NCBI GenBank assembly: GCA_964016885.1
Contig: OZ024743.1
Location: 268,646,001 to 268,710,000, forward strand
Direction: 5' to 3'
Origin: Eledone cirrhosa
Lineage: Eukaryota
DNA: 64,000 bases
In this document: one piece after another, positions 9,011-46,506 of the stretch
How positions within the stretch are numbered: position 1 is the stretch's first letter
How the letters are laid out: each line of letters begins with the position of its first letter
Position numbers and translations under genes: made by a program
Notes under the pieces: generated by a model
Database searches by the model: none
The model's input: only the letters and a program-made list of their open reading frames with translations
Told to the model about the DNA's origin: nothing

Positions 9011-9360
9011 AAAAACAAATAACGAAACGAAATTAAATTTCGTTTCGCTTCTAACTCACTTTTGTATGACTGACGCTTAAACAATTAAGTTAAAGTGTAC
9101 ATCTACATATGTATACGGAAGTACTAGTATGCATATAAATACACGCATGTATACATATGTACATGTACCGAGTTTTTCACTAGACACTTTACAGTGAGTG
9201 TCCAGCTAGTCTGTATGTAAACAAACAGACGAACCGGGTTTTAAAGTCATACGAGTTTTCAAGGAAACACACTTCCTCTATTCTCCAGAGAGCCAGACAG
9301 GAATATTGGACTAGTTTCGATGTTATTACATCTCATCAGCAATATATACCTATCTATACA
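9011..9360 (-). mobile_element. Diverged member of retrozyme family A, flanked by (TA)n
   Basis: Shares ACGAAATT..TTTCGTT terminus, GTAAACAAACAG block and HHR architecture with the units at 31641-32832. Confidence 0.7.
9299..9351 (-). ncRNA. Canonical type I hammerhead ribozyme
   Basis: Minus strand: AGG-TAT-ATATTG-CTGATGA-GATGT-AATA-ACATC-GAAA-CTAG-TC-CAATAT-T-CCT. All core nucleotides present, G10.1-C11.1, GUC site. Confidence 0.92.
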
Positions 9361-11272: not shown

Positions 11273-11325
<53 letters not shown>

Positions 11326-12581: not shown

Positions 12582-13005
<424 letters not shown>

Positions 13006-14792: not shown

Positions 14793-17748
14793 TTCTCGTG
14801 TAGCACCCATCCACCATCTGAGTGAGTTTCTTGGTGAGTGTCCAAGTCTCAGACCCGTACAGCAGCACAGACTCCACTAGAGAAATGAAGAGGCGTATCT
14901 TCAGGTCCCCACGAAGGTCCGACTTCTATACCGATCTCAAACTGTGGCACGCCGCCCAGGCTTTGCTCTTTGTCTCAACCACATCATCTTCCGTATTCCC
15001 AAACTTTGCTCCCAAATACAGGAAGTCCTCAACTAATTCCAGGGGCTTCCCGCCTACATTAGTGATCCCCTCTGGCTTTTCAACATTCTCTACCAGACAT
15101 TTTGTCTTAGTCTCATTCATTCTCAGCCCCACACTCATCGACACAGTCTCAACTTCCTGCATCAAATCCTCTGCCCCTTCACTGCATTTGTCACCAAAAC
15201 TATGTCGTCGGCAAATTCAGCATCCGATATCTTTTTCGCCTTAACTCTCCTGCTCTGAGCCGGTGCTACAGAAAAGCCAGAGTCCTGGTGTTTCTCCAGT
15301 GCAAGGCGCATACAATAGTCCACTACGATGATAAAAAGGTAGGGAGCCAATGTACCTCCCTGGAGCACTCCAGCCAGTATCTCAAAGAACTCTGTCATCC
15401 CATCAGGTGTAATGACTTGGGCTTTGGTGTTGGTGTAGAGCAATGATATCAGGTCCACTATCTTCTTGGGGATTCCATAAGCCTGTAAGATCTTCATCAG
15501 ACAGTGACGGTCCACAGAATCAAAGGCCTTCCTAAAGTCAATGAAAACCATGACCGCAAGAAGGCACTTTGCTCTAGCTCCCTCTAATATCCTCCTAAGC
15601 ATCAGGATGTGACTGGTGGTTGATCTTCCCTCTCTGAAGCCGTTCTGGTTGTCCCTGAGCTTATTCTCCATCTCGGGATGGATCCTGTTAAGAATCATAC
15701 TGTTGAGGGTCTTTGCCACAAGTGACGTCAGTGAGGTCCCCCCCCCTCTGTAGTTGTTGATGTTAGAGAGATCTCCCTCCTTTGGCACTGGGACGATGTT
15801 ACTGAACCTCCACTGATTCGGGGCAACTCCTTTCTCCAGTGCCTGGTTACAGAACCCCAGGATGATATCAAAATCACATCTCTTCATCACCTCTGATGCT
15901 ACTATATCTTCTCCATGAGCCTTGCCCTCCTTGATCTTCTTATTGGCTCTCTCAAGCTCCTCTCTGGTGAAGGGCTCTGTCTGAATATCCAGTTCTTCAA
16001 ACAGCTGCCTGATCTCCCCAGTGTTCTGGGCTGTGGAGGCCGGCTCTCCTAGTAGGGTCCTAAAATGGTCTAGCCATTTCCCATCCTATCCTCGGGCCCT
16101 TTTCCATGGATCTAACTAGAACACCTTCTCTTCTTCCCTGTGATCTCGTTGATGATCATTCAGCTCCCTTACGTCTTACATCCAGAACTGCCAACCGCTC
16201 TCTCCACACTTCTGATCTTCTCTATCAGTGCCTCCTCTCTGGCCTCAGTGTAGGAGGTACAGAGTTCTTTCCTCATCACTTCCACATTCTCCTTCCTCTC
16301 CTCCGTAGGATAAGCATAGAATTGATCCTTGGCAGCTTTCGGGTGTTCTCTAGCTGCACACACTTTTGGGTCTGCAGAGCTGACGTGCTTTCTTTTGTTC
16401 TTTTTCCTCGGCACCAGGGTCACACTTGCTTCCACTACTGCATTGGTGAAGTATCCGTACCTCCTCGTCACACTCTCCTCATTCCATCCAATCTCTCTCT
16501 CCTCTGACTCTCCACACATAGCACTGAACTTGTTCCTCACTTCCACTGTGAACCTCTCCTGTAGCTTATCATCTTCATTGAAAGCTCCCCAGTCATAGAT
16601 TGCTCTCCGGGGCCGAGCCTTGCTCTTTCATAAGTTCACCCGGACCTCACTCATAACAAACTGGTAGTCACTACCCAGTGTACTGAAATAGTTGTATGGT
16701 TCTGTGTTCAGAACACTATTCCGACACTTTTTCCTCACCAGAATGAAATCAATCTGGGACTTGGGCAGGTGCATATCTGAGATGTAGGTCCACATCTACC
16801 TCAGATTCTTCCTAAACCTTAGGCTGGTCGCTATCAAATTCGCCTCCAGCAGGGTGTCTCAGTAGTCTTCCATTTCGGTTGGTGTTGTTATGGAAGTACC
16901 AGCAAGGATCTTCACTGCCCTCCTTAATCAGATGTGCATTGAAGTCCCCAGAACAAGCAGGATGTTGTGTGCTTGTGTGGTGTTGACAGCTCTACACACC
17001 TCCTCATGGAACTCTTCCGCACTCACATTACTGTCTCCCTCGGTTGGACTATAGGCTGAGATGACTGTCAGTCTTGGATTTTCATTGAAGATCACCCTCA
17101 ACACTCGCGAGGAGACAGGTATTATTTCCCTCACCAATAGACTGGTTTTTGTGCTGAAAACAAAGCCCACTCCTCCTACAGCAGCATTGGTCATGTTCTT
17201 TCCTGCCGATGTGGTGATGAGCTGGCTCATCTTCCCAATCATCACACTTCTCACGGGCTCATCGTATAGTATCCTGTGTTCTTCGACTGCAAGTATCTGT
17301 ATACCACTCTCCTCGAACACATGACCCAACTTCTCTCTCTTCTCCAGCGTCCGAATAGTCCTCACATGCAAAGTGTCCATTTTCATGGCTATTCTGCAGG
17401 ACAAAACTGCATTCTTTATATTTGTCTCAGAACAGCTGATCCATCATCTACTGGCCCTCCCTGTGGCTCTAAGCCATCAGTGTCATAACGACCAGACTGC
17501 TCCTTGATAGTGTAGTTAGGGGCTCTAACCCTAGTGCTGTTAGATAGTGCTGTTAGATATTTCTTTTCAATGGCTGACAATACCTTACCGGCTCCACTCG
17601 AATAAGGTAGTTATTTAACCCATAAATGGGGCCCTAACAGGTACTACTACTCCGGGCCGGAGCAGACCTGGGAGTTATGACAACAAAGGGGTAAGTCCAA
17701 ATTCTCCACAGTTCCTGAACTCCCGAACTGGAGCCTTGCCACTGGACA
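14793..17748 (-). mobile_element. RTE-clade LINE (APE endonuclease + RT), frameshifted, 3' end missing
   Basis: APE: GVGF, ISAYSPT, QIDFILV. RT: VPKEGD, NYRG, QNGFREGRST, FIDFRKAFDSV, GVLQGGTLAPYLF, FADDI, FLYLG, ESVLLYGSETW. Confidence 0.92.
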
Positions 17749-17829: not shown

Positions 17830-18043
17830 TTCTTTATTTACCATAAAGGCATAAAAAGAAGGGACAAATACAAAGGGGGAGTTTACATACAATCGAATAA
17901 AAAGGGTATAAAATGAAAATAATCGAAAACAACCTCAAAAGGGAGGGGACGTGATGGGGGTTGCACACACCCCCGAAAAAGTGTGCAATCCTTTGCCCGG
18001 GGAGCACATGGAGAAGGTGCTCCCCTCTCCTTCACTTCTTTAC

Positions 18044-21000
18044 CTACAGGATGGTATACAGAGAAGGCCCATTTACACGAGCCATTCTCGCCACTATCAC
18101 CCACCTTTCATAAAACTGGCTGTGGCCAAGCACCTCTATCTCCATTCTTATCCTTCTTCCGAAGTGATATCGGAAGAAGTAGACCAGACTATGGCCAGAG
18201 AGGAAGTTGCCTGACCTCAGACCTTTCAATCGTGTCCACCAAACAACCTCTTTCAACATGGCTATTACGCACAGAAAAACCGCCTTTGCTTCCTTTGTGA
18301 AGAGGGGAGGCGGTTTGATTGTCATCACGGACTCGGCGGTCAATCGAATCGGCGCCACCCGCGACAGCAGTCGTTCGGCGTAGCCCCACAGATCAGCCAC
18401 GCCCGGAAATTGCACCAATGCGTGCGCAAGGGTTTCTTCGTGACGCACGCATCTAGGGCAAATCTTTTTCGAGGGATCCCTGCCCGGGCGCCCGTGTCTG
18501 TAGAGCCTCTCTCGAACGGGTAGAGCCCCCGGTAGCACTGCCAGGCTAGTGACTTCTGGAAGTTGTCCATTGGTCCCGGGCCGAAAGTCCTACCGAACAG
18601 GCTGGCCAGTTCGTCCTCTTCCATGTCCAGCGACTCTCCAAGGGTGTCATCGCCCCTGCTAGCCACCAGCCCTCTATAGAATGATGAGGTGGATTCTCCA
18701 CCGATGGCCTGGCCCGCTTGCCAGAGAGCCCTGAGCGCCTGAGCACACTCAGTGTGCCAGTCTCCCAGTTTTCCGGATCTTTGCTTGACCCAGGACTGCA
18801 GCTCGGTGAGCGAGACGAGTCTCGGAAAGGCTCGTTTCACGAACGGAGCCCACACCGGTTGACCAGTGAGGAATACCTGTAGGTGCCGTAGCCTTAATGC
18901 GTGCCTACGCATCATCAACCACGGCATCCCCAGCCCTCCTTTCGAATGTTGTTGGCAGCAGATGGATCTTCTCACCATAGGAGGGCACTTCTTCCAAAGA
19001 AATTGGAAGAGCATGCGTTCCATGGTGGTGAGTGTTTCCTTAGAGCAAGGCACGACAGTCAGGCGGTAGTAAGTGACGGACGCTATGTAAATGTTCGCCA
19101 CCTCCGCCCGGCCTTTTAGGGACAGCTTACACTTGGCCCATTTCTGGGTTAGTGCAAACACCTTGTTCGTAACCTCGTTCCAGTTCTTTTCCACCTGGAG
19201 GTCCGGTCCAAACCAGACCCCAAGCAACTTTACCGGGCCCTCCGTCCAGTGTCCGACGACACCGTCGGGAGGCATCGGTCTGCCTCTCCACGTTCCGAGT
19301 TGCAGCTCGATGGATTTTTCCCGGTTCAGTTTCGCTCCTGACCTTTCGTAATCCTCCAGTAAGGTACCGATCGCCTCGATCTCCGAGTCGGTCGATACCA
19401 TTACTGTTACGTCATCGGCGTAGGCCGACACCGCTTTGCTCAATCCTGGTTCCAGGTGGATACCCTGCAACAACTCCAACTTCCTCAGTAAAGGCTCGAG
19501 AGTCAATACGTACAGAAGGGAGGAGAGAGGGCACCCCTGTCGAATGGATCGTGTGATTTTTAACGGCTTCGAAAGGTAGCCGTTCACCTTGATCCTAGAA
19601 CAGATGTGGTTGCTATGTAAGACAGTGATCCAGCCTCTGAAAACAGGACCGAACCCAGCCGCCGCTAGCACCGCATCCAGGTAACCATGGTCGACCCTAT
19701 CGAAGGCCTTAGACTGATCCAAGTTGATCAGGGCCCCACCGAAGCCGGGTTTGTTGCCAACCCTCTCTATGATGTATCGCATGAGGTGGATGTTATCATG
19801 AATGGACCTGGATGGGATAGCACATGTCTGCGCATCTCCCACCAGGCTACCCACGACAAGCGCCAACCTCTTTGCTAATACCTTGGCCAAAATCTTTAAC
19901 TCTGTGTTTAGCAGGGTTATGGGCCGAAAATTATTTATACTATCCCCCTTGTTCTCGTCCTTCCTCACCAGCGAGACTACGCCCTTGGCTACAGAACAAG
20001 GAATTCTCCCGTTCTGCTGCCAATTGCAGTAGACCGCTTCGAGGAGTTCGGAGAAGAAGACCGGCATTGCTAAATAAAGTTCGTACGGTATACCATCGAG
20101 ACCTGGAGATTTGCGTCTGCTGCATTGGCTCAGCGCATCCCCGATCTCATCAGCCGAGATTGGTCCTTCGCAGGACTCTGCTTCTTCGCTCGAGAGACGC
20201 GGCAGGCCGTCGAGGTATGGACCGAAATCCACGTCCCCGCCCGGACTCTCGCCTCCCCCAAATAATCGGGCAAAGTGCCTTTGAAAGGCCTCGCACATCT
20301 GCTTAGGCTCCCGGATCTCCCGTCCATCCTCGTCTTGCAACGACCGGATGGTGGATCGATTTCCACTCTTAGCTTCTGTCACGCGGGCCCAGCCAACGGC
20401 TTTGGCCCCCTCATTACCTAGAGCACGTATTTTACTTCGAATGACGCAGCCTTCGTGCTTTGCATCGAAAAATTGGTTCAAGGCCGTCCTCGATGCCAGT
20501 ACTCTGGCCACATCTTCGCTCTTGATTGCCTCTTCTAATTTACCAGTTAATTCTTTCTCGTTTCTATTCCTATCGGCAGCTAACATCTTGCTATAACTTA
20601 TTGATTCTATTCTAATCTCTCTTTTGAGAGATGCCCACCATCGGTTGTTGACGATTGCACCCGTCAACCTCTCCTTAACTAATCTGCTAATCCGGTTTCT
20701 GTAAGTCTCTTTTGCCGGTAAAGACAAATTAAGTTTCCAGTAACCGGGACCCTGTTTATGTGTTTTCTCGAGATTGACTACGCAGGTCACTAATTTGTGA
20801 TCCGTATAGCCAACCGTGAGCATTTCTGGACAGCTTAATATGTCCCTATCCTTACTTCTAACTAAGAATCTATCTAAGTACGATCTAGATTGACCACTGT
20901 GGTTCGTCCAAGTCCAGGTAAGCACAGTTGGAAAATCTAGTCGATATCTATCGACCAAGTTAAAACGGTCGAGTAACCCCTTGAGGCTGTTACACCCCCC

Positions 21001-21477
21001 TCTATTAGGACATGCTCCTGCATAGTCCCAACGTGCATCTAGGATGTCATTCCAATCCCCCGCTAGAAGCAGGGAACGCGACGTTCCCAGAAAAGTCTCC
21101 AAACGCTGGAAGAAGTCGGGCCGTTCAGCTCCGAAAGGGGTGTAGACGGCGACTAGTCTCAAGGCCGCACCTTCACTACTGCCAACGTCTAGCACCAACA
21201 AACGACCCTCCGGGCCCGAGTGAACAACCTGTACGGCAAGACCCAGGTGTTTTTGCAGTAGTACGACAACCTCACCCCCACCTCCAGGTTGACAGAGAGA
21301 TGCATGCACCTCAAAGTCATCGAAGGTAGGGGCCAGCTGCCGCACGACGCTGATCCGAGTCTCACAGATAACCATTACATTTATACCACATGACCTGAGG
21401 TCATTTAGAAGCTTTGCTTGCTTCCAAGTTGAGCCCAGGCCACGTGCATTCAAACATCCTACTCTTAACACATCCAT
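18044..21477 (-). CDS. LINE ORF2: APE endonuclease, reverse transcriptase, C-terminal CCHC; one frameshift near 18530
   Basis: LNARGL, ETR, AGDWN, SYLDRF, TDH, SPGLDG, RPITLLN, LDQSKAFDRVDH, RQGCPLS, AYADD; CPRC..ETLAHAL in the 18044-18538 frame. Confidence 0.93.
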
Positions 21478-21510
21478 GTGGGCGGCAAAGCCAAAGGAGA
21501 GTGTAGAGAC

Positions 21511-22838
21511 CTACCTTTCTGCTTCCCAGGGTTCGGGTCGCACGACTTCCATGGGGTCGGGGGTGTTGGGTGAAGGGGTGTCTTGTGGTGGTGTGGGGTC
21601 GTCAGTGTGTGGTGGGGTTGGGGTGTTTGGAGTTGTGTTGGGGAGGGGAAGGGGAGGGGTAAAGCTTTTTAGTAGGACGCGGTTTATGGGTTTGACAGAG
21701 GGTGGTCCTACGTCCTCCTTAAAATCCTTTTTTAGTTGTTGGTAGAGGTTCATTGGGATCTTTATTAATTTTAAATGTGGGTAGTTTTCTGAAGAAACAA
21801 AGTTTACACCTTCGGTTTGTACCGAAGGATTATTGTTTATGAGTTCATTTAATTTATTATTGTTTCTGTTGATGTAAGTATAGTGTAATGTGTTTTTTTC
21901 GGATGGTATGAGTGTTTCGAAGAGGGGAGGGGCAGGTTTGGTTTTGTTTGTTGCTGGAGGGGTGTTTTGTGTTTTGTTGGATTGTGTTGACATTTGGGTG
22001 GGGGTTGTTTGGCCTTGTGTGTTTTGCACATGTTTTCTTTTTTTCCTTTTAATCTGTCTGAAGGACTCCGTTTCTTCCTCCGAATTCGTTGGGTTATCTT
22101 CAGTGTTGGAGGGAAGAGGTGTTTGCTGGTAATGTTTCCGTGTTGGTTTTCTTTGTGGGGGAGATGGATGTCACTATGTTAGACTGTGTTGTGTGTTGTG
22201 GCTGCGGTGGTTGTGTTGTTTTATTGAGTGAGGGGTTGGGTGGGCCTGTATTTTGTTTTGGGGTAATGTGTTGTGACTGTTTGTGTTGTGGTGGAGGTGT
22301 AGTTTTACTGAGGGACGGGTTGGGTGGGACTGAGTTTTGTTGTTTGTTTATCTGTTGTGGTGGTGGTGGTGGAGCTGGTGTTGGTAGCAGGGTTTTCTTT
22401 TTGTTGAGTTGGGGACAAGCCGCCTTCAGGTGCCCTCTGCCTGCACAGATATGACAGGACGGCCTTCTCCCCTCCACGCTAATGTTTATATACCCGTGGC
22501 CCTCTAATAGGATTCTGAAGGGTATTTGGGCGATGCGTTCAGGCTTCATTTGCACTACAAGTTCTATACCTGTTCCACTGAACGCATTGCCTGTGGTTTT
22601 CCCAATGGAAATCACGTTGTCATTCGCTGGATCGATGAAGCCAGCTATGAGCCAGCAGTAGTCCACATCTGGCATCATTGCATCCAGCCATATGCGTTGA
22701 GTTCTTTTACCCATATAAGATGGATAAAAGGTAAAATTTTTCGAACGAATCGGTGACAAAGCACATTTTTTTGCCGCCGATTCGTTCTTCATAATAATCG
22801 CTAGGCTTCCATACAGTCTGTCTTTTCTTATGAAAGTG
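21511..22838 (-). pseudogene. LINE ORF1 (gag-like) remnant
   Basis: CHICAGRGHLKAAC (CX2CX4HX4C) followed by a Pro/Thr/Gln-rich region. The ORF-track N-terminus beyond 22838 is read-through into the retrozyme repeat. Confidence 0.75.
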
Positions 22839-23037
22839 GTATGTATACGTACATACATATATGTATACAGATGTACAGTAGTATGTATATATATACATAC
22901 ATGCACACATATATTATATATATGTACGTATGGGTTTACCGAACATTTATTATAATGTTCAGTTTGTGAACAAACAGCCCGAATTACGCCGTACAGTGTT
23001 CGGCAACCATCGTCGCCTTTTTGTTCAACACTGACAC

Positions 23038-23090
23038 AGGAACGATGTACTAGTTTCAAGCTTATTAGCTATCGTCAGCATAGTATACCT
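23038..23090 (-). ncRNA. Type I hammerhead ribozyme (mirror of 32077-32129); mutated copy at 23469-23521
   Basis: Reverse complement of AGG-TAT-ACTATG-CTGACGA-TAGCT-AATA-AGCTT-GAAA-CTAG-TA-CATCGT-T-CCT. Confidence 0.8.
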
Positions 23091-23661
23091 TCCTGTCAGA
23101 TAATTGAACGTTTGAAAGTATATACTTTCCTTATGCATATTAACGGCTGAGCAGGCTAATTTGCATATCGATTGAGTTAGTCGGCCGGGCGAACCGAAAA
23201 CTATAAATGGAAAAGGATGAAACGAAATTTTATTTCTCACTCTTAGTACGGCAGATACTTAAATGTAAGTATGTACACGTACATACACATATGTATACAG
23301 ACGTACAGTAGTATGTATATACATACATACATGTACACATATATATATATGCACGTATGGGTTTACCGAACATTTATTATAATGTTCCGTTTGTTTGTAA
23401 ACAAACAGCCCGAATTACGCCGTACAGTGTTCGGGAACCATCGACGGCTTTTTGTTCAACACTGACACAGGAACGATGTATTAGTTTCAAGCTTATTAGC
23501 TATCGTGAGCATCGTATACCTTCCTTACAAACAAGCCGAACATTATAATAAATGTTCGGTAAACCCATACGTATATGTATATGTGTGCATGTATGTATAT
23601 ATATATACATACTACTGTACGTATGTATACATATATGTATGTACGTATACATACATACATT

Positions 23662-23697
<36 letters not shown>

Positions 23698-23761
23698 TAT
23701 ATAAATGTATGTATGTATACGTACATACATATAAGTATACAGATGTACACTGGGTTTTACG

Positions 23762-23798
<37 letters not shown>

Positions 23799-23818
23799 AT
23801 ATATATATATATTTAATG

Positions 23819-23899
<81 letters not shown>

Positions 23900-24128
23900 A
23901 TAATAATAAATTTGAAGACTAAAATCCAAAGAGGGCTCAATAAGGATAAATATATATCAAATATAAGAACCAATAAATATATATATATATATATACATGG
24001 AAAGTTATATTTAAAATTGTTGGGTTACAACTAGTAAATATTTATAACTGATATAAAAGCACTCGACAAATATTTGGAGTATATTTACAGTATTAAATAA
24101 ATGGAAACTATATTTATAAAACCATATT

Positions 24129-24194
24129 TATTTCATTATATATATTTCGGGGATATCATATTAACAATATGCTATGCCTTCCTCAGACAAAATA
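24129..24194 (-). ncRNA. Hammerhead ribozyme in the 3' pseudo-LTR of the Penelope-like element (left arm)
   Basis: Mirror of 30959-31024. Confidence 0.8.
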
Positions 24195-25613
24195 CAATAT
24201 AAACAGTTTTATAGATAAATATATTCGACATACCGTTACAACACCGACTTCCATTTGAAGAGGTTTAAGCTGGCAGTGAAAAAATTTTACACAGAGAGAA
24301 AGAAAGAGAGAAAAAAAGAAAGAAAGACAGAAAACGAAGAAAAGGAAGAAAAAGAAGAAATGCATGGAACAAAATAGAGAGATGGAAAGATAGATAAAGC
24401 GAAGAACTTCATGTAAAGAAACAGAAAGAGATATATATATACAGAGAGAGAGGAAATAGAGATAAATACATATATATATAGAAAATTAGGTAGTGGGAGG
24501 TCATTTTGAGTAAATGTATCAATGATACATTTATTTATTTATTTATTTATTTAGCTCAAGTATTAATGTAAGGGAGATATATATATATAGAGAAAAAATA
24601 TATAGAGAGGAAAAAATAGAGAGAGAAAAAAAATTTAAAAATAGCCAGATATATTCGAGGCGTAAAAACCCTATGTATTAATGTATTAGCATTTATAAAA
24701 CTTACACTATATTGTAAATATCAGTATTCCTGAATGAGACAAGTATCCATAGTGTGTGAAAATTAATTATCTTATGTTTAGTTTTAAAAAAATTCATATG
24801 TTTATGTGACAGCTACAAACATCCATGCGAATCCACATGATTCACTCTGCAAACTCTAAGTTCACGGAAAACATTCTCAATGTGGTATAAAAATTTGAGC
24901 ATACATATATGTGTATTATTATTCCTGTCTTTACTCTTCAAGATTATCTATCAAGCAGAAATAGAGAGCAGATTTCAATATACTAATAAAAATATATATC
25001 AGAAACAAAACTAAAAAAATAAATAAATAAAAAGATAACAATAATAATAATAAGTAAAAATAAGTAATAATAAAATAGAAAACTAAAAAAATATTACCAA
25101 AGAATATTACATAATAAAAATATTACATATTAAAAATATTACGTATTAAAAAATATTACGTATTAAAAATTTACATATTAAAGATATTAAAAATAAAAAT
25201 AAAAAATAAAAAATAATTATAAAATACTACAATAATAAAAAATAAAAATAAAAATAAACCCCAAAGATCAACCCTTCAAAGTTAATTGACAATATATTGC
25301 CAAGTTCATTACAAGACAAAGCCAAAAATTATCTATCAAATCACATCTAGCAAAGATCATTTCAAAAAGTTTATGATGTCCAAATTGGTCTACATATGTT
25401 CTTATATTTAATATAGAAGTTTATCTAGTGTAAGGTTTATTCAAAAAATTTGGAGCATCAGCTTTTAGGGTAGCTTAATTTTTCATGAGGAATGTTTAAA
25501 TAAAAATAAAATAAAAATAAACAATAAAAAGAATAAAAAGAAGGAATCAAAAATTTAGGAATCAAAAATTTATCGGCTAGTTTCCCATATAAATATAAAT
25601 CAAACTAAATATA

Positions 25614-27469
25614 CTACATTTTAAATTTAAATTTATATTTAAACGTTGAGTTTAATCTATGTTTGCAACAACTGAATAAATTTGTCCGTAGGTTAAGGGA
25701 ATTTTTAGATTTTAGTATAAAGAATATCTCCTCTGCGCAGAGGTCACATGTCTCAGAGGATGAATTAAAAGGAATCCCTCTTGAGACTATATTCCAAGCC
25801 GTCGAATATCTAACGTTATCTAGCTTAAGTTGCCAGAGTACGCCTGATAGTGCCGTTGAAGATTTTTTACTTGGATCTGTGAAAGAATTCTTGTGGTTAT
25901 TATAGCGAAGTTTAAATTCCGTCGATGTGGAACCGACGTAGTTAAAAGAATTAGAGTCAGTATTAACATTACAATTGTATACTATATTTTTAACTAAGCA
26001 GTTGTTATTTAACGGACATTTAGATCTATCTCTACAGTTACATTTGTTAACTTGTATATTATTTATGCTATTATCACTAGGTTTTAAGTTCCTATTATTT
26101 ATTCTATTAATATTTTGTGCTAAATTTTTGGTGGATGAGTAGGTTAATTTAATTGTATGCCTATTGAAAATTGAGTGATACCTATGTGTTCTAGGGAAGC
26201 GATTATCAAGAGCTTTGAAAAATAATTTAGCGATGTGGGTTTTAATGTTTAGTGAGAAAGGGGGGGCAAACCAAATTATGTTCCTAGTTCTATTTCTTTT
26301 TTGGCCTTTGGAATTATTGTAATGCTTTCTATTATAGTTGTTAATGTTGTTGCCGTAATTAAAAAAGTTGTTACTTTGTTTAGTTTGTCTATCATTATCT
26401 ATGTACACAATCTTATCAGCATATCCTGCCCTAGCTAATGCTTCATTATAGTATTGGGCCTTTTCGTCGAAAATCTTTCTATTCGACGAGATCCTAGAGA
26501 TACGTTTTTGAACTGAGTTTACTATAGTGTTTTTGACAGATCTGGGGTGGTTAGAGTTAAAGTTGACATAGTTTAAGTTTTCATTCAACTTGTGAAAAGG
26601 ATAGTGGAGACATGTGTTGAGATTTAATGTTATATCTAGGAAATTGACTATTCTATGGTTGTTCTCAATTTCTATTTTAAGGTTAAAGTAATTAAAAAAT
26701 TTTGTAATTTGTTTACATTTTCTATTTAGTTCAGGGTTATTATTATTAATAAGTAAAAGCATGTCATCCCTATATAAACCTCCGGTAGTACCAGGTATTT
26801 TCCTATGTAGCGAATTGATTAAAAATAAGCCCACAAGGTCAGTTACCTGAGCTGAGTCGGAAGATCCCATAGTTATGTCAAAATTGCTATCTCTATCTGC
26901 TCTGGTCCATAATTTGTCATTAAATTCTATCAAAGTTTTCCTAGCCGATAATATAATATGCATTTCTTTGCTAGTTAGGTCAGTATGTTTGAATGCGTAA
27001 TTTAGTGCCTTATTTAGTAGACTAGGGGTAATAGAAGAATAATAGTTAGCTATATCAAGTTGAATAAACCTATTATTATTGTTATATTTAATTTGCCTAA
27101 ACCACTCAACAACCTCTCCAGTTCCCTTCCACAAGCTCAGGTTAGATACACAATCCAAGTTCTTAATTTGCTGTATCACCCTGTCAAGAATGTTTTTGCT
27201 TAATTTGCCCAGGTCCGATTTTGAAGGTGCGATCAATCTAACTGGCAGGTCATTTTCAAAATTCCTCTTGTGGTCCTTCATATTGATCTTCGGTTTCCTG
27301 GGCACGAAAGGTTGTGTTCTGTTCTCAATTTCCAACTCGTGCATTATACAAGATGCTTCGACATTCATTTTCTCAAGTTCGGCCTTATCTGCTACCTTGT
27401 ACTTTTTCCTCAGCTCTTTCAGTATGAGGCCATTATACATGTCTTTCCGCACTCCATAGAGGTTGTTGG
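25614..27469 (-). CDS. Penelope-like element polyprotein (RT + C-terminal GIY-YIG endonuclease), 5'-truncated, uninterrupted
   Basis: VRLIAP, LDIANYYSSI, TMGS, LYRDD, FLDITL, CxCx5C linker (CNCRDRSKC), IVY..YVGST..FKLRYNNH, CDLC..E, LN. Confidence 0.95.
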
Positions 27470-29539
27470 AGAATCAGGTGGCGTGCATTCCACTTTGATA
27501 AATCTAATGCAGACGAAAATGTCTCGGACTTAAACAAAGTTTTCAAATCTAAAAGAAATCCACCCCCTAACAAACTTTTATCTGACTTTGAAAACGATAT
27601 AATTTCTATCATACAAGGGGTCAAATTCAAGAGAAACTTCAAAGGCCAGGAATATCTGAAAGGCATTAAGGATAACATTGACAGCTTAGAGAAAACTGAG
27701 AAGATCTTGGTGAAATCTGACAAGACCAACAACCTCTATGGAGTGCGGAAAGACATGTATAGCAGATAAGGCCGAACTTGAGAAATGAATGTCGAAGCAT
27801 CTTGTATAATGCACGCGTTGGAAATTGAGAACAGAACACAACCTTTCGTGCCCAGGAAACCGAAGATCAATATGAAGGACCACAAGAGGAATTTTGAAAA
27901 TGACCTGCCAGTTAGATTGATCGCACCTTCAAAATCGGACCTGGGCAAATTAAGCAAAAACATTCTTGACAGGGTGATACAGCAAATTAAGAACTTGGAT
28001 TGTGTATCTAACCTGAGCTTGTGGAAGGGAACTGGAGAGGTTGTTGAGTGGTTTAGGCAAATTAAATATAACAATAATAATAGGTTTATTCAACTTGATA
28101 TAGCTAACTATTATTCTTCTATTACCCCTAGTCTACTAAATAAGGCACTAAATTACGCATTCAAACATACTGACCTAACTAGCAAAGAAATGCATATTAT
28201 ATTATCGGCTAGGAAAACTTTGATAGAATTTAATGACAAATTATGGACCAGAGCAGATAGAGATAGCAATTTTGACATAACTATGGGATCTTCCGACTCA
28301 GCTCAGGTAACTGACCTTGTGGGCTTATTTTTAATCAATTCGCTACATAGGAAAATACCTGGTACTACCGGAGGTTTATATAGGGATGACATGCTTTTAC
28401 TTATTAATAATAATAACCCTGAACTAAATAGAAAATGTAAACAAATTACAAAATTTTTTAATTACTTTAACCTTAAAATAGAAATTGAGAACAACCATAG
28501 AATAGTCAATTTCCTAGATATAACATTAAATCTCAACACATGTCTCCACTATCCTTTTCACAAGTTGAATGAAAACTTAAACTATGTCAACTTTAACTCT
28601 AACCACCCCAGATCTGTCAAAAACACTATAGTAAACTCAGTTCAAAAACGTATCTCTAGGATCTCGTCGAATAGAAAGATTTTCGACGAAAAGGCCCAAT
28701 ACTATAATGAAGCATTAGCTAGGGCAGGATATGCTGATAAGATTGTGTACATAGATAATGATAGACAAACTAAACAAAGTAACAACTTTTTTAATTACGG
28801 CAACAACATTAACAACTATAATAGAAAGCATTACAATAATTCCAAAGGCCAAAAAAGAAATAGAACTAGGAACATAATTTGGTTTGCCCCCCCTTTCTCA
28901 CTAAACATTAAAACCCACATCGCTAAATTATTTTTCAAAGCTCTTGATAATCGCTTCCCTAGAACACATAGGTATCACTCAATTTTCAATAGGCATACAA
29001 TTAAATTAACCTACTCATCCACCAAAAATTTAGCACAAAATATTAATAGAATAAATAATAGGAACTTAAAACCTAGTGATAATAGCATAAATAATATACA
29101 AGTTAACAAATGTAACTGTAGAGATAGATCTAAATGTCCGTTAAATAACAACTGCTTAGTTAAAAATATAGTATACAATTGTAATGTTAATACTGACTCT
29201 AATTCTTTTAACTACGTCGGTTCCACATCGACGGAATTTAAACTTCGCTATAATAACCACAAGAATTCTTTCACAGATCCAAGTAAAAAATCTTCAACGG
29301 CACTATCAGGCGTACTCTGGCAACTTAAGCTAGATAACGTTAGATATTCGACGGCTTGGAATATAGTCTCAAGAGGGATTCCTTTTAATTCATCCTCTGA
29401 GACATGTGACCTCTGCGCAGAGGAGATATTCTTTATACTAAAATCTAAAAATTCCCTTAACCTACGGACAAATTTATTCAGTTGTTGCAAACATAGATTA
29501 AACTCAACGTTTAAATATAAATTTAAATTTAAAATGTAG
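27470..29539 (+). CDS. Penelope-like element polyprotein, right-arm copy with ~85 extra N-terminal codons but disrupted at ~27762
   Basis: Spacer encodes RIRWRAFHF..LSDFEND..VKSDKTNNLY in frame. A ~41-bp deletion creates a TAA; the rest matches the left copy (ORF 27785-29539). Confidence 0.93.
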
Positions 29540-31253
29540 TATATTTAGTTTGATTTATATTTATATGGGAAACTAGCCGATAAATTTTTGATTCCTAAAT
29601 TTTTGATTCCTTCTTTTTATTCTTTTTATTGTTTATTTTTATTTTATTTTTATTTAAACATTCCTCATGAAAAATTAAGCTACCCTAAAAGCTGATGCTC
29701 CAAATTTTTTGAATAAACCTTACACTAGATAAACTTCTATATTAAATATAAGAACATATGTAGACCAATTTGGACATCATAAACTTTTTGAAATGATCTT
29801 TGCTAGATGTGATTTGATAGATAATTTTTGGCTTTGTCTTGTAATGAACTTGGCAATATATTGTCAATTAACTTTGAAGGGTTGATCTTTGGGGTTTATT
29901 TTTATTTTTATTTTTTATTATTGTAGTATTTTATAATTATTTTTTATTTTTTATTTTTATTTTTAATATCTTTAATATGTAAATTTTTAATACGTAATAT
30001 TTTTTAATACGTAATATTTTTAATATGTAATATTTTTATTATGTAATATTCTTTGGTAATATTTTTTTAGTTTTCTATTTTATTATTACTTATTTTTACT
30101 TATTATTATTATTGTTATCTTTTTATTTATTTATTTTTTTAGTTTTGTTTCTGATATATATTTTTATTAGTATATTGAAATCTTCTCTCTATTTCTGCTT
30201 GATAGATAATCTTGAAGAGTAAAGACAGGAATAATAATACACATATATGTATGCTCAAATTTTTATACCACATTGAGAATGTTTTCCGTGAACTTAGAGT
30301 TTGCAGAGTGAATCATGTGGATTCGCATGGATGTTTGTAGCTGTCACATAAACATATGAATTTTTTTAAAACTAAACATAAGATAATTAATTTTCACACA
30401 CTATGGATACTTGTCTCATTCAGGAATACTGATATTTACAATATAGTGTAAGTTTTATAAATGCTAATACATTAATACATAGGGTTTTTACGCCTCGAAT
30501 ATATCTGGCTATTTTTAAATTTTTTTTCTCTCTCTATTTTTTCCTCTCTATATATTTTTTCTCTATATATATATATCTCCCTTACATTAATACTTGAGCT
30601 AAATAAATAAATAAATAAATAAATGTATCATTGATACATTTACTCAAAATGACCTCCCACTACCTAATTTTCTATATATATATGTATTTATCTCTATTTC
30701 CTCTCTCTCTGTATATATATATCTCTTTCTGTTTCTTTACATGAAGTTCTTCGCTTTATCTATCTTTCCATCTCTCTATTTTGTTCCATGCATTTCTTCT
30801 TTTTCTTCCTTTTCTTCGTTTTCTGTCTTTCTTTCTTTTTTTCTCTCTTTCTTTCTCTCTGTGTAAAATTTTTTCACTGCCAGCTTAAACCTCTTCAAAT
30901 GGAAGTCGGTGTTGTAACGGTATGTCGAATATATTTATCTATAAAACTGTTTATATTGTATTTTGTCTGAGGAAGGCATAGCATATTGTTAATATGATAT
31001 CCCCGAAATATATATAATGAAATAAATATGGTTTTATAAATATAGTTTCCATTTATTTAATACTGTAAATATACTCCAAATATTTGTCGAGTGCTTTTAT
31101 ATCAGTTATAAATATTTACTAGTTGTAACCCAACAATTTTAAATATAACTTTCCATGTATATATATATATATATATTTATTGGTTCTTATATTTGATATA
31201 TATTTATCCTTATTGAGCCCTCTTTGGATTTTAGTCTTCAAATTTATTATTAT

Positions 31254-31258
<5 letters not shown>
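29540..31258 (+). mobile_element. Long AT-rich 3' region / pseudo-LTR of the Penelope-like element, ending in (TA)n
   Basis: Follows the stop codon and contains an HHR. The distal ~250 bp is homologous to the solo element at 41437-41760. Confidence 0.75.
30959..31024 (+). ncRNA. Type I hammerhead ribozyme of the Penelope-like pseudo-LTR
   Basis: TATTTTGT-CTGAGGA-AGG..CATATT-GTT-AATATG..CCC-GAAA-TATATA-TA-ATGAAATA. Stem I 8 bp with two G-U pairs, palindromic stem III. Confidence 0.8.
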
Positions 31259-31348
<90 letters not shown>

Positions 31349-31368
31349 CATTAAATATATATATATAT

Positions 31369-31405
<37 letters not shown>

Positions 31406-31469
31406 CGTAAAACCCAGTGTACATCTGTATACTTATATGTATGTACGTATACATACATACATTTATATA

Positions 31470-31505
<36 letters not shown>

Positions 31506-32076
31506 AATGTATGTATGTATACGTACATACATATATGTATACATACGTACAGTAGTATGTATATATATATACATACATGCACACATATACATATACGTAT
31601 GGGTTTACCGAACATTTATTATAATGTTCGGCTTGTTTGTAAGGAAGGTATACGATGCTCACGATAGCTAATAAGCTTGAAACTAATACATCGTTCCTGT
31701 GTCAGTGTTGAACAAAAAGCCGTCGATGGTTCCCGAACACTGTACGGCGTAATTCGGGCTGTTTGTTTACAAACAAACGGAACATTATAATAAATGTTCG
31801 GTAAACCCATACGTGCATATATATATATGTGTACATGTATGTATGTATATACATACTACTGTACGTCTGTATACATATGTGTATGTACGTGTACATACTT
31901 ACATTTAAGTATCTGCCGTACTAAGAGTGAGAAATAAAATTTCGTTTCATCCTTTTCCATTTATAGTTTTCGGTTCGCCCGGCCGACTAACTCAATCGAT
32001 ATGCAAATTAGCCTGCTCAGCCGTTAATATGCATAAGGAAAGTATATACTTTCAAACGTTCAATTATCTGACAGGA

Positions 32077-32129
32077 AGGTATACTATGCTGACGATAGCT
32101 AATAAGCTTGAAACTAGTACATCGTTCCT
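32077..32129 (+). ncRNA. Type I hammerhead ribozyme
   Basis: CTGACGA..GAAA-CTAG-TA; stem II AGCT/AGCT with AATA loop; one mismatch in stem I. Confidence 0.8.
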
Positions 32130-32491
32130 GTGTCAGTGTTGAACAAAAAGGCGACGATGGTTGCCGAACACTGTACGGCGTAATTCGGGCTGTTTGTTCA
32201 CAAACTGAACATTATAATAAATGTTCGGTAAACCCATACGTACATATATATAATATATGTGTGCATGTATGTATATATATACATACTACTGTACATCTGT
32301 ATACATATATGTATGTACGTATACATACTTACATTTAAGTATCAGCCGTACTAAGAGTGATAAGTGAAATTTCGTTTCATTCTTTTCCATTTATAGTTTT
32401 CGGTTCGCCCGGCCGACTAACTCACTCGATATGCAAATTAGGCTGCTCAGCCGTTAATATGCATAAGGAAACGTTCAATCATCTGACAGGA

Positions 32492-32544
32492 AGGTGTATG
32501 ATGCTGACGATAGCTAATAAGCTTGAAACTAGTACATCGTTCCT
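32492..32544 (+). ncRNA. Type I hammerhead ribozyme
   Basis: AGG-TGT-ATGATG-CTGACGA-TAGCT-AATA-AGCTT-GAAA-CTAG-TA-CATCGT-T-CCT. Confidence 0.85.
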
Positions 32545-32658
32545 GTGTCAGTGTTGAACAAAAAGGCGACGATGGTTGCCGAACACTGTACGGCGTAATT
32601 CGGGCTGTTTGTTCACAAACAAACCGAACATTATAATACATGTTCGGTAAACCCATAC

Positions 32659-32709
<51 letters not shown>

Positions 32710-32895
32710 CTTGTATGTATATATATACATACTATTGTACGTCTGTATACATATATGTATGTACGTATACATACTTACATTTAAGTATCAGCCGTACTAA
32801 GAGTGAGAAATGAAATTTAGTTTCATTCTTTTATATATATATATATATATATTGTTATACTTGGGGAGGGTCATATTTGTGTAATATTGCCAGAA

Positions 32896-33643: not shown

Positions 33644-33832
33644 GTGGATTGGCAGTAACAGAAGAGAGTCGGACCCCATGCTTTGCAGCAAAGAGTTACG
33701 GCCCTTTATGGTCTGAGTTCAAATCCAGCCAAAGTTAACTTTGCCTTTCATCCTTACGGGGTTGATAAAATAAAGTACCAGTAATGTACTGGGTAATTGG
33801 TGGCCTTGTGCCAAAAGTAGAAACAATTATTA
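33644..33832 (+). mobile_element. Deu/Nin-like tRNA SINE
   Basis: Near full-length match to the family consensus. Confidence 0.85.
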
Positions 33833-33973
33833 TATTTTCTGTGATATTTGGTAGACATATTCTGTATAGAAGCCAGATGCGAGCACATATGCAGTTATGC
33901 AGTTAAGCTCTCTCACACACGCCTGCACACATACAAACACGATTACACACACACACACATATATATATATACA

Positions 33974-41426: not shown

Positions 41427-41436
41427 CAGAGGTTAT

Positions 41437-41754
41437 ATTTAATTTGTTGGGATAAACAAGCTAAAATATTTTTATAACTGATATAAAGCACTCAAACAAA
41501 TTATTAGAGTAAATATACAATATATTAACAAATGGAAACTATATTTATAAAACGATATTTAACGGTTGGAGCTTCCTGGATAGCTCCAACCGTTAAGTTT
41601 GCATTTTTTCAGGGTATGTCAATATTTATTTATAAAACTAATCTGTATTATATTTTATCTGATGAAAGCGCACCATAATCTGCCTTGGTGGCCCTTGAAA
41701 TATGTATAATAGAATAAATATTGTTTTATAAATATAGTTTCCATTTGTTAATAT

Positions 41755-41762
<8 letters not shown>
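41437..41762. mobile_element. Solo fold-back pseudo-LTR related to the Penelope-like element, with HHR at 41651-41716
   Basis: 41437-41560 resembles 24010-24130. HHR: TATTTTAT-CTGATGA-AAG..CACCA..TGGTG..CTT-GAAA-TATGTA-TA-ATAGAATA. Hairpin TTAACGGTTGGAGCT..AGCTCCAACCGTTAA at the junction. Confidence 0.85.
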
Positions 41763-41809
<47 letters not shown>

Positions 41810-41815
<6 letters not shown>

Positions 41816-42250
41816 GGAAAACATGAAACGAAATTTCATTTCCCACACTTAGTACGGCTGTTACTTAAATAAAAGTATTTACACGTACATACATATATGT
41901 ATACAGACGTACAGAAGTATGTATATATATATACATACATGCACACATATATATATGTACGTATGGATTCACCGAACATTTATTATAATGCTCGGTGTGT
42001 TTGTAAACAAACATCCCGTATTAAGCCGTAGTGTCTAGCAACCATCGTTGCTCGTTTGTTCAACACTGATAAAGGAACGCTGTACTAGTTTCAAGCTTAT
42101 TAGCTATCGTCAGCAACGTATACCTTCCTGCCAGATTGTTGAAAGTATATACTTATCTTATGCATATTAACAGCTGAGTAGCCCAATTTGCATATCGAGT
42201 GGGTTAATCGGCCGGGTGCACCGAAAACGATAAACGGAAAAAATGAAAAA
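41810..42250 (-). mobile_element. Retrozyme family A monomer (~420 bp) with a short terminal redundancy; HHR at 42073-42125
   Basis: ATAAACGGAAAA.ATGAAA at both ends; HHR stem I ACGTTG/CAGCGT, CTGACGA, GAAA-CTAG-TA. Confidence 0.88.
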
Positions 42251-42258
42251 ATGAAAAA

Positions 42259-42289
<31 letters not shown>

Positions 42290-42473
42290 GTAAGCTGTGT
42301 CTAGGTGAATAGATAGTCCGCGTATGATTTGACGAATTTCGAGTGTGAGTACAGTTTATTTGGTAGGGGTCATGGGTACAGGTTTGCCTTCAGTTTAGGG
42401 TATTTGCTGATGGTGAGTAGAATGATTGCAGCAATAAATAACGTTCTTATTTGCATATATATTTATATATATC

Positions 42474-43380
42474 CCCCTCCGCTTCCGTGGTATTTTCTTC
42501 GGGGTTATAAGAGGCTTAGCTCTGTTTCTCGACCGTTATATCGCGTGACTATCTCCCCCTTCGCCTTTTGGGATTCTTTCTCACGTCGTGTAGACGCGTT
42601 CTTGAGACTAGTAAAATGAGGTATCCTCTTGATAATTCGGCAGACCTCGCAAGGACTCTATATCTTTATGATGTATTGTTTTTGTTTATGCCACGAAACT
42701 ACGTAGTCGAGGAATTTAGGAGCAGTTTAGGTATGATACATTTTATTACTAATTATATCTAAATGTTTCTTCTCTCTTTATAATGTATTTTTAACTCTGA
42801 TACTGGTTCAGTCTGGTTCAACCGGATTGGTCTGTCCCAGTCATTCATTGAGCAACATCGGTGAAGTTGGCACCCTTAACTCACGGTTGGGTGCGGATGC
42901 ATTCATGTATATGTGTGTGTCCGCATGTATCTGTGTTTCTAAATATATTGTTAATAACTCCCTCTTGTCGAGCAATCTTTGAGGTGTGGGGACTGCTGGA
43001 AAGCTTCCATTACTCATACTTCTCGCCTCCTTCACCACCTCTTCTACGGCTTCGATATAAATACGCCCTCCGCCTCCGTGGTATTTTCTTCGGGGTTATA
43101 ATAGGCTTAGCTCTGTTTCTCGACCGTTATATCGCGTGACTATCTCCCCCTCCGCCTTTTGGGATTCTTTCTCACGTCGTGTAGACGCGTTCTTGAGACT
43201 AGTAAAATGAGGTATCCTCTTGATAAGTCGGCAGACCTCGCAAGGACTCTATATCTTTATGATGTATTGTTTTTGTTTATGCCACGAAACTACGTAGTCG
43301 AGGAATTTAGGAGCAGTTTAGGTATGATACATTTTATTACTAATTATATCTAAATGTTTCTTCTCTCTTCATAATGTATA
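42474..43380 (+). mobile_element. Retrozyme family B: 1.5 units with a 591-bp period, one HHR per unit
   Basis: ~315-bp direct repeat 42474-42788 / 43066-43380; HHR motifs at 42624-42713 and 43215-43304. Confidence 0.85.
43215..43304 (+). ncRNA. Type I hammerhead ribozyme with U3-A8 core variant
   Basis: TCCTC-TTGATAA-GT(C)GGCA..TGCCAC-GAAA-CTACGTAG-TC-GAGGA. Confidence 0.8.
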
Positions 43381-43399: not shown

Positions 43400-43660
43400 A
43401 AGCAACCGATGTGTACTTAAGAAATTACTATATATTTTCAACCGTTCAGCAGACTCGCAGAGGTATGCAGTCCTGATGAAGGATAATGACCCAGAAACAT
43501 GTTGATTGTTCCTCAAATCCACTGTTGAACAAACAGTCGACGATCTGTCACCGGCACGGCACAGCGTCAAATCGTGCCGTTTGTCTACAAACGAATTGAA
43601 CATTATTATCAATGTTCGACATAACCCATACGTACATATGTATATACGTATATGTGTGTA
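43400..43660 (+). mobile_element. Highly diverged retrozyme family A relative with HHR at 43460-43514
   Basis: GAGG-TAT-GCAGTC-CTGATGA-AGGAT-AATG-ACCCA-GAAA-CATG-TT-GATTGT-T-CCTC; downstream GTTGAACAAA and AACATTAT..AATGTTCG..AACCCATACGTAC blocks shared with family A. Confidence 0.78.
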
Positions 43661-43784
<124 letters not shown>

Positions 43785-43940: not shown

Positions 43941-44121
43941 ATTGGCAGTATTGGTAGAGGGTCGGACGCCATGGTTTGACGTATAGAGTTACGGCCCTTG
44001 CCATTCTGAGTTCAAATCCCGCCAAGGTTAACTTTGCCTTTCATCCTTACGGGATCGATAAAATAAAGTACCAGTAATGCACTGTTTAATTGCTGGCCTT
44101 GTGCCTAAAGTAGAAACAACT
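43941..44121 (+). mobile_element. Deu/Nin-like tRNA SINE
   Basis: Family consensus match. Confidence 0.85.
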
Positions 44122-46189: not shown

Positions 46190-46489
46190 TAGTGAAAGAG
46201 TGAAGAATAACATGGTCGGCTGTACAAAAAGGGTTTTATTTCTAGTATTAACAATTGTTTCATTTATCAGGTGAGTCTAAAGGTCGCTAATCACTCGAAG
46301 TTGCCTCTCTCGACCTTAAATACAGTATTCTGATGATTTGATCAGAGGCAAACACTGTATTTAAGGTCGAGTGACGCAACTTTGAGTGATTAGCGGCCTT
46401 TAGACTCACCTGATCAATGAAACAATTGTTAATACTAGAAAAAAAAACCTTTTTGTACAGCCGACCATGTTATTCTACAATCTTTCACT
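46190..46489. mobile_element. 300-bp fold-back element ending in (TA)n
   Basis: 46190-46326 is the reverse complement of 46354-46489. Confidence 0.88.
46324..46436 (+). ncRNA. Type I hammerhead ribozyme with a 64-nt insert in loop II
   Basis: AGTATT-CTGATGA-T TTGATCAG..(64 nt)..CTGATCAA T-GAAA-CAATTG-TT-AATACT. Confidence 0.85.
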
Positions 46490-46506
46490 ATATATATATA
46501 TATATG

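Follow-up and report, generated by a model that had tools for sequence, protein, structure and literature searches.

An abundant hammerhead repeat in TA microsatellites of Eledone cirrhosa, probably a retrozyme with Penelope-type insertion marks

Family A and the known retrozymes

Tandem repeats that bear hammerhead ribozymes and form RNA circles have been described in coral, mussel and axolotl (PMC7229834). These metazoan retrozymes, which lack long terminal repeats (non-LTR), are built of non-coding tandem units of 150-450 bp with a GC content below 50%. They carry one canonical-type type I hammerhead per unit, have a predicted circle that pairs with itself and leaves the ribozyme core open, and occur together with Penelope-like elements, which have been termed strong candidate movers of retrozymes (PMC7229834). 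A repeat that is alike in these respects (GC 37%), here called family A, lies in a 64,000-nucleotide (nt) stretch of the Eledone cirrhosa genome (GCA_964016885.1, contig OZ024743.1, positions 268,646,001 to 268,710,000 of the forward strand; hereafter the window). Family A is probably a high-copy, ~430-nt, non-coding non-LTR retrozyme that is moved to TA microsatellites by a Penelope-like reverse transcriptase (RT)/endonuclease, probably of the Hydra clade, from a circular or uncut RNA template. The evidence comes from the window, four DNA sequencing runs (of 16 listed) and published papers. Sequence of this stretch occurs in part in 13 runs, none of them recorded as RNA.

Helix II of the family A hammerhead starts with a U.U, a trait also seen in HHR_Amex2 of axolotl, and its short palindromic helix III is matched in HHR_Amex1 (PMC7229834). 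It differs from the retrozymes of that study in joining both weakening traits in one motif, and its unit is at the upper end of the size range. The main text of PMC7229834 makes no mention of (TA)n targets, inverted arms or paired 3' ends, nor of microsatellites, cephalopods or octopus. Retrozymes of Xenopus and other vertebrates, like family A, occur as monomers and short arrays, and a Penelope partner has been proposed for them (bioRxiv 10.64898/2026.07.22.740005). The two consecutive complete hammerheads by which that work defines an active retrozyme are present in family A. Unlike the vertebrate retrozymes, family A has no homology to the end of the local Penelope-like element. The vertebrate case is built on co-occurrence and similarity to Penelope-like terminal repeats (pLTRs), not on insertion anatomy, and no mollusc is among the classes listed there (bioRxiv 10.64898/2026.07.22.740005).

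We found no report of family A in listings of the literature on cephalopod or octopus hammerheads, ribozymes or retrozymes. Insertion anatomy of this kind was not found in listings on retrozymes with Penelope elements and microsatellites; similar repeats may be given in the supplement of PMC7229834. For the giant squid genome, 235 Rfam hammerhead loci have been listed but not analysed (PMC6962438). Retrozymes as a kind are already known and the element itself is no surprise, while its mover is still a hypothesis in print. Family A bears the marks of Penelope-type insertion, has two candidate sites of RT initiation and lies next to a young Hydra element, which makes that hypothesis testable.

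The tandem array, its hammerheads and its abundance

The family A array (31642..32832, plus strand) consists of 2.8 head-to-tail units. A 47-nt lead-in is followed, cut to cut, by units of 431 nt (31689-32119) and 415 nt (32120-32534), and by a partial third unit that carries an expanded TA/TG tract and runs to unit position 267, then (TA)n. Unit positions are numbered from 32120, the first nucleotide after a predicted cut. The tandem hammerhead units of 415-431 nt that the initial annotation had proposed for this interval are thus borne out. At each unit junction lies a type I hammerhead with a bulged helix I (5 + 5 pairs), CUGACGA, a four-pair helix II that opens with U.U, GAAA, a helix III formed by the palindrome ACUAGU, and the cleavage triplet GUA.

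Two consecutive hammerheads are complete with intact cores (32089-32119 and 32504-32534). The first of these (32073..32130, plus strand) has the U.U at the helix II base and the ACUAGU helix III, and its cut is predicted after 32119; the other (32488..32545, plus strand) would be cut after 32534. Both sites follow GUA triplets, at the positions where cleavage had been predicted. The former has a private mismatch in helix I at 32085, because the family has G there. The most upstream hammerhead (31642..31699, plus strand), at the foot of whose helix I the array starts, is predicted to be inactive. The initial annotation had ascribed core mutations to it; one core change is present (G5C at 31660), while the other change, G to A at 31686, lies in helix III rather than in the core.

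With a strict type I descriptor we obtained seven matches in the window, compared with a mean of 0.1 (maximum 1) over 30 local shuffles. Five of the seven belong to family A (32089 and 32504 on the plus strand; 42113, 9339 and 23078 on the minus strand, the last being the mirror of 32089). Of the remaining two, 41659 (plus strand) is a hammerhead of another family and one looks like chance. Rfam gave no hammerhead match at gathering scores, and its 141 sub-threshold matches (E up to 10) were mostly to TA-hairpin microRNA models, again with no hammerhead; two motif scans of metagenome contigs had no matches.

Covariation was assessed on six hammerheads of the window, a small and related set that includes the diverged copies at 9339 and 43473. 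In this set 88% of 102 cells pair, compared with 29-45% in slid controls, and 7 of 17 helix pairs change on both sides, a result reached by none of 500 shuffles. All six copies have the bulged long helix I with a conserved GGUAU, and loop 2 reads AAU(A/G); in canonical motifs, loops 1 and 2 make tertiary contacts. Among 40 variant rows considered from the four DNA runs (a further 60 lie outside this set), the sole change in the catalytic core is at the free position N7.

The unit appears to be non-coding. Stops occur in all three plus-strand frames, and there is no Penelope-like protein match in the unit: the 79 Hydra-like proteins that were compared matched only 25644-29509, so that no remnant of a Penelope open reading frame (ORF) of this type was seen in family A. 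There is no LTR structure, although a primer binding site and polypurine tract were not searched for. The placing of the repeat among non-LTR retrozymes by the initial annotation is supported, in that it has every retrozyme feature that could be judged from its sequence.

Family A is abundant in DNA runs of two organisms. One permuted unit was compared with two sets of contigs (X1, and X4 from another organism) and two sets of restriction-site associated DNA (RAD) reads (X14, X15). Family A contigs numbered 7,041 of 16.3 million in X1 and 3,394 of 17.6 million in X4, and family A reads 42,777 of 12.5 million and 40,485 of 12.8 million in X14 and X15. Closure of the unit on itself, from 32469 to 32040 (430 nt), was found in all four runs, supported by 15 and 9 contigs and by 88 and 83 read starts. 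Most reads carry a 4-nt insertion at 32199. The usual unit is therefore ~430-434 nt. The 415-nt unit is atypical of this family because of private deletions of 15 nt and 4 nt; thus, of the specific 415-nt monomer proposed earlier, the cut sites stand, and the length is that of a private variant. The 24 loose read ends shown (of 938) had no common exit into another sequence. The comparison covered the unit apart from 32253-32334, at the edge of which lies the more upstream of the two 3'-end groups described below.

Array units differ pairwise by 4.1-6.8%; because of this divergence the array is not a fresh rolling-circle product. They are 12.9-14.2% apart from the copy at 41812 and 5.6-8.9% from other fragments. 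Two alleles seldom found in the family (A at 32395, ~1-5% of depth; T at 32405, ~0-2%) occur in both unit 1 and unit 2, which therefore derive from one monomer.

Dispersed copies, their ends and probable Penelope-type insertion

Family A occupies five loci within the window. A permuted monomer at 41812..42260 (minus strand) has an intact hammerhead (42113-42083) and (TA)n on both sides. The same ~19 nt stand at its two ends (18 of 19 letters alike), and at the 5' end TTTTTTCA occurs once more as a slipped copy, in agreement with the unit plus ~19 nt of redundancy described earlier at 41810-42250. The copy at 9011..9355 (minus strand) represents a diverged subfamily that differs from the other copies in helix II. 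Its hammerhead is intact (9339-9309), with G-C at the helix II base and a GUC triplet; it starts at the helix I foot and also has (TA)n on both sides. In both of these copies the (TA)n flanks would hide any target-site duplication. An older diverged copy (43405..43665, plus strand) has a degenerate hammerhead, with its core at 43473-43497, and has lost its 3' part in a TA run.

Head-to-head truncated arms are present at two of the five loci. One is the array itself, which is faced by an inverted, 5'-truncated arm (31504..31641, minus strand) that ends at unit 217 before (TA)n. Across one (TA)n tract this arm faces a short plus-strand fragment (31419..31465) that also ends at unit 217 and was not counted as independent. 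The other is a truncated pair at 12582..12902 (12799-12582 on the minus strand, 12798-12902 on the plus strand), in which the plus arm ends at unit 215-219 before (TA)n and the minus arm abuts a short interspersed nuclear element (SINE).

The copies ending at 9011, 32832 and 41812 stop 13, 8 and 13 nt past a GAAATTT..GTTTC motif and are followed by (TA)n; the initial annotation had pointed out this shared end, and rightly so. The motif forms the 3' side of a hairpin (unit 242-259; 32807..32824, plus strand, in the array), 8-13 nt upstream of this distal group of 3' ends; the 9011 subfamily has a longer hairpin. Another group of 3' ends is found 50-60 nt upstream of the first. Among eight arm ends, three fall at unit ~267-275, three at 209-219 (31504, 12898-12902 and 22839) and two elsewhere (12582, at a SINE; and that of the 43429 copy, in a TA run). 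The end at 31465 was omitted from this count as the likely mirror of 31504, and an end of the left arm with its mirror in the right arm counted as one. The probability of two such clusters among eight ends is 0.003 under a uniform null and 0.009 when ends are drawn from TA sites. Priming at one fixed position, as proposed earlier, is only partly borne out, with two preferred sites and two stray ends among the eight.

Thousands of RAD reads turn unlike the unit after 32371/32372, beside the GAAATT motif, and were rejected as evidence of a 3' junction because the break coincides with an AATT site, as do other read ends (32185, 32439), and there is a CATG 105 nt upstream. The loose letters past 32371 agree at 0.34-0.36, and random sequence of the same AT content at 0.31. 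These loose ends are probably library chimeras.

All four hammerhead-bearing loci span the cleavage site and none starts at it; the template was therefore not a cut linear monomer. This much of the circular or multimeric template suggested by the initial annotation holds, while the crossing of the cut site suits a circle and an uncleaved linear multimer alike. The RT of a Penelope-like element (Poseidon, Anolis) starts internally, at two sites that define the tail, on uncut RNA and at AT-rich nicks (PMC11167929). Permuted copies are thus no proof of circles, because Penelope-like RT can start inside an uncleaved RNA (PMC11167929), and Penelope-type priming should give fixed, permuted 3' ends whether or not the template is a circle. 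The copy at 41812, of one turn plus ~19 nt, would be well explained by a circular template.

Known hallmarks of Penelope-like elements include inverted truncated arms, a one-sided tail of 30-40 nt and (TA)n targets (PMC8557442). Family A is inserted at (TA)n, has arms that are inverted and truncated, and has its 3' ends in pairs, all of which points to Penelope-type enzymes as the movers. The ends of family A follow the pattern of Poseidon PAc of Anolis, with its two internal RT starts, one-sided tail, AT-rich targets and insertion from uncut RNA. PAc is unlike family A in being autonomous, of another clade and primed inside its ORF, and its tail of 30-40 nt compares with an end spacing of 50-60 nt in family A (PMC11167929). 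Hydra families in particular insert into (TA)n (PMC8557442 section 11, File S1).

A scheme of movement can be proposed on the observed base of tandem and permuted units, a conserved core, covarying helices, (TA)n flanks, head-to-head truncated arms and two 3'-end groups. A read-through RNA would carry two or more hammerheads. With only a 2-bp palindrome for helix III and a U.U at the start of helix II, a lone motif would cut weakly, whereas a pair of motifs would cleave as a dimer and so release unit-length RNA. The ~430-nt unit could then be closed by a host ligase, by analogy with the retrozymes of coral, mussel and axolotl. To judge from the anatomy of the insertions, a Penelope-type endonuclease would nick (TA)n, and RT would start inside the RNA at unit 209-219 or at 267-275, the latter just 3' of the hairpin. 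RT would cross the intact cleavage site and stop early or after slightly more than one turn, and a second complementary DNA (cDNA) on the other strand would yield the inverted arm. In this scheme the present array, with units 4-7% apart, is an older insertion, and a recent duplication took in both the array and the Hydra element beside it.

Predicted circular folds have z scores of -8.9, -5.7 and -7.0, compared with -3.4 to +3.2 in six control stretches. The predicted circles are 65-69% paired with the hammerhead core open, and a TA-rich palindrome contributes to their stability. Helix III costs 5-6 kcal/mol in the monomer, and its palindrome gives a duplex of -4.8 kcal/mol. Motifs with a short palindromic helix III act as dimers (PMC4209133), and monomers of axolotl motifs with a weak helix III or a U.U at the helix II base reached 6% and 22% cleavage, their dimers far more (PMC7229834). 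We infer that cleavage of family A RNA would be modest and dimer-dependent, and we rate the formation of RNA circles in vivo at a little better than even.

Several observations weigh against the scheme. Helix III was not predicted in any fold computed, and the lowest-energy dimer of two copies of the hammerhead at 32073..32130 pairs through the AAGCUU palindrome of helix II and is not a double hammerhead. Only one of nine predicted Xenopus dimer elements cleaved in vitro (bioRxiv 10.64898/2026.07.22.740005). Two of the four hammerhead-bearing arms, the array at 31642 and the 9011 copy, begin at the helix I foot, which would not be expected of a circle; these points (31642 and 9355) may mark a fixed start of the RNA or a strong stop of the RT. 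Array units (4.1-6.8% apart) are hardly nearer to each other than to some dispersed fragments (5.6-8.9%). The clustering of 3' ends has a probability of 0.075 when ends are drawn from TTA sites, and its 15-nt window was picked after the data had been seen. As to the enzyme, Naiad and other clades likewise prefer (TA)n (PMC8557442). Family A has no sequence in common with the 3' region of the neighbouring Hydra element (similarity score 58, shuffle maximum 58), and because of this we infer the Penelope partner from anatomy.

A possible but less favoured explanation is that Penelope-type enzymes move family A as uncut linear RNA that starts just upstream of the hammerhead, with circles rare or idle and the ribozyme cutting little. 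It differs from the proposed scheme on circles only, as RT start, (TA)n nicking and array history are common to both. The helix I-foot starts of the array and the 9011 copy are as expected with a fixed RNA start, and the weakness of helices II and III also favours it; in anole, insertion of a Penelope-like element was unharmed by hammerhead mutants and no reads ended at the cut site (PMC11167929). The 41812 copy, however, with its one turn plus ~19 nt and a slipped repeat at the stop, fits a circle, and random truncation would yield such a copy only occasionally. The covariation speaks for strong selection on the helices, and each of the three animals examined in PMC7229834 had circles.

Alternatively, the unit could be the terminal repeat of an autonomous Penelope-like element outside the window, the arrays and monomers being its truncated debris. 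The insertion anatomy is the same as that of Penelope-like elements, and among 57 retrozyme families of Xenopus, 24 resemble the ends of known elements, which in 21 of 22 cases are Penelope-like (bioRxiv 10.64898/2026.07.22.740005); moreover, the test for ORF remnants covered Hydra-like proteins only. We nevertheless consider this origin unlikely. The long bulged helix I (5 + 5 pairs) is canonical and is not the short helix I of Penelope minimal motifs (PMC4209133; PMC8557442 File S2). The unit closes on itself in the reads, where the 24 loose ends shown had no common exit, and the neighbouring Hydra element bears its own, different hammerhead of the minimal type. That family A is the terminal repeat of this particular Hydra element is contradicted by the lack of shared sequence and of an ORF remnant.

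An array made at the DNA level, by unequal crossover or slippage of one inserted monomer in a satellite with a passenger hammerhead, is very unlikely: units 1 and 2 share rare alleles and have since diverged, as expected of one ancestor followed by local ageing, and local amplification after insertion has been proposed (bioRxiv 10.64898/2026.07.22.740005), but one circular RNA template predicts the same shared alleles, crossover leaves unexplained the dispersed copies (in both orientations, with unrelated flanks), the clustered 3' ends and the inverted arms, and the covariation points to selection on RNA structure.

The neighbouring Hydra-clade element and other repeats

A 5'-truncated Penelope-like element at 27470..31157 (plus strand) consists of an ORF (27470-29539) and a long AT-rich 3' region and ends at (TA)n. 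The RT-endonuclease ORF, 250 nt from the family A cluster, has the motifs RWR, DKT, CNCRDRSKC (CxCX5C), YVG (GIY-YIG-type), CDLC (CxxC) and CKH (CxH), and no CCHH. It has 79 relatives at 32-44% identity; protein searches yielded one Argonauta protein at 36% and no named relative that was close, and Pfam matched no family in the Hydra frames of either arm of the duplication described below. By its motifs, compared with those of section 11 of PMC8557442, the element is assigned to the Hydra clade. It shares with Hydra-clade elements these motifs (with RWR for RWK), a 3' hammerhead, a (TA)n end and a head-to-head truncated copy (PMC8557442). In a comparison of published consensus sequences by eye only, it represents a family different from Hydra-1_Obim (PMC8557442). 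The 3' region (29540-31157) is 1.6 kb of low-complexity AT-rich sequence, unusually long for a clade whose elements are mostly <3 kb (PMC8557442), and may hold inserted material.

The element carries its own minimal-type hammerhead, family B (30959..31024, plus strand; motif at 30967, predicted cut after 31016), ~140 nt before the (TA)n at 31157, with a homologue at 41659. The latter is part of a head-to-head pair of family B ends at 41432-41766, 77-83% alike to 30919-31149, which has an intact minimal hammerhead (41659-41708), a central GC-rich hairpin and arms that end 76 nt apart in family coordinates. The (TA)n that follows this pair holds the family A monomer at 41812. Given the 67 TA tracts counted in the window, the meeting of families A and B in one tract may reflect shared targeting.

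Self-comparison of the window revealed two head-to-head arms of 4.6 kb (22839-27469 and 27726-32328), 99.6% alike and separated by a 256-nt spacer, and part of the array lies within them. The left arm (22839..27469, minus strand), an inverted copy of 27726-32328, contains an open Hydra frame of 619 codons (27473-25614), the 3' region, microsatellites and the array as far as position 209 of unit 2. The arms differ by a 41-nt gap and a 1-nt gap (near 27760-27783), two substitutions and one TA length. At 22839 the left arm joins ORF1 of a 5'-truncated long interspersed nuclear element (LINE) without (TA)n or microhomology. This LINE (17830-22838, minus strand) has endonuclease and RT domains (PF03372, PF00078), a zinc-knuckle ORF1 and frameshifts; its 3' end lies in an (AGAT)n tract and its 5' end is cut at the junction with the inverted arm.

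We give an even chance to the explanation that a young Hydra element inserted in (TA)n beside the older array, and that a fold-back second strand ran 1.2 kb into the flank and joined the LINE. The left-arm frame is open over 619 codons although the array units are ~5% apart, and an ORF aged by 2.5% stays free of stops in 17% of trials (substitutions only). Since the LINE has its other end in a microsatellite, a similar tract may once have adjoined the truncated 5' end. Spacers such as the 256 nt here and deletions near the centre are matched in fold-back palindromes. On this explanation, however, the 41 nt present in the left arm and absent from the right call for a later deletion, and the end of the left arm within 8 nt of a preferred family A end would be chance.

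It is also possible, if doubtful, that a read-through RNA of the Hydra element plus the array was reverse transcribed twice, with both cDNAs starting inside family A units. Both arms run outward from 5' truncation points in the ORF into the array; the left stops at unit 209 and the right at 267, positions that match or lie close to the two preferred end sites of family A. Penelope-like elements, Hydra included (Penelope-13_HM; PMC8557442), typically leave truncated copies head-to-head. The explanation requires, however, that as many as three intact hammerheads left the RNA uncut, and there is neither (TA)n nor microhomology where the left end meets LINE ORF1. That the locus captures a Hydra-clade element in the act of moving the retrozyme, with both cDNAs of the 10-kb head-to-head insertion started in retrozyme units at the two sites where free copies end, we regard as unlikely. 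If true, this would name the partner enzyme and map the RT start sites on retrozyme RNA, one of them beside the hairpin, and retrozyme units would serve as portable signals for RT initiation that can take RNA lying upstream along with them.

An assembly artefact from a fold-back read is improbable: the arms are 99.6% alike and such structures trouble assemblies (PMC8557442), but the arms differ by the gaps, substitutions and TA length given above, the centre is a clean in-frame ORF spacer, and several smaller head-to-head structures of the same style occur in the window.

Further inverted repeats adjoin TA tracts. An inverted pair of 238 nt (9699-9936 and 11037-11274, 99.6% alike, 1.1-kb spacer), with arms that end at a TA run, holds a hammerhead-like motif with the core CUGACGG and is probably another Penelope-type end. 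A palindrome at 7149-7396 (90% alike) adjoins (TA)n, has hammerhead-like cores at 7220 (minus strand) and 7325 (plus strand) and a central 39-nt tandem, and resembles a degenerate head-to-head Penelope end. Palindromes at 46190-46490 (89% alike) and 59398-59513 (100%) are both tied to (TA)n tracts. Direct repeats of 325 nt (42465-42788 and 43055-43379, 97.5% alike, 266-nt spacer, TA-rich ends) are possibly a partial tandem of another small element; scans found no hammerhead core in them.

The window is AT-rich and dense in microsatellites, with a multi-copy SINE and two LINE fragments, and a tRNA scan of it gave no matches. The SINE, of ~190 nt, is present in at least 10 copies (33644-33834, 10120-10308, 52996-53187, 55851-56050, 43941-44119, 48666-48851, 6120-6308 and others) and is presumably similar to an octopus SINE. 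A second RT fragment (PF00078) lies at 15162-16085 (minus strand). Also present is a 204-codon frame at 4511-5125 (plus strand), for which Pfam gave no match and which resembles a decayed hAT-type transposase.

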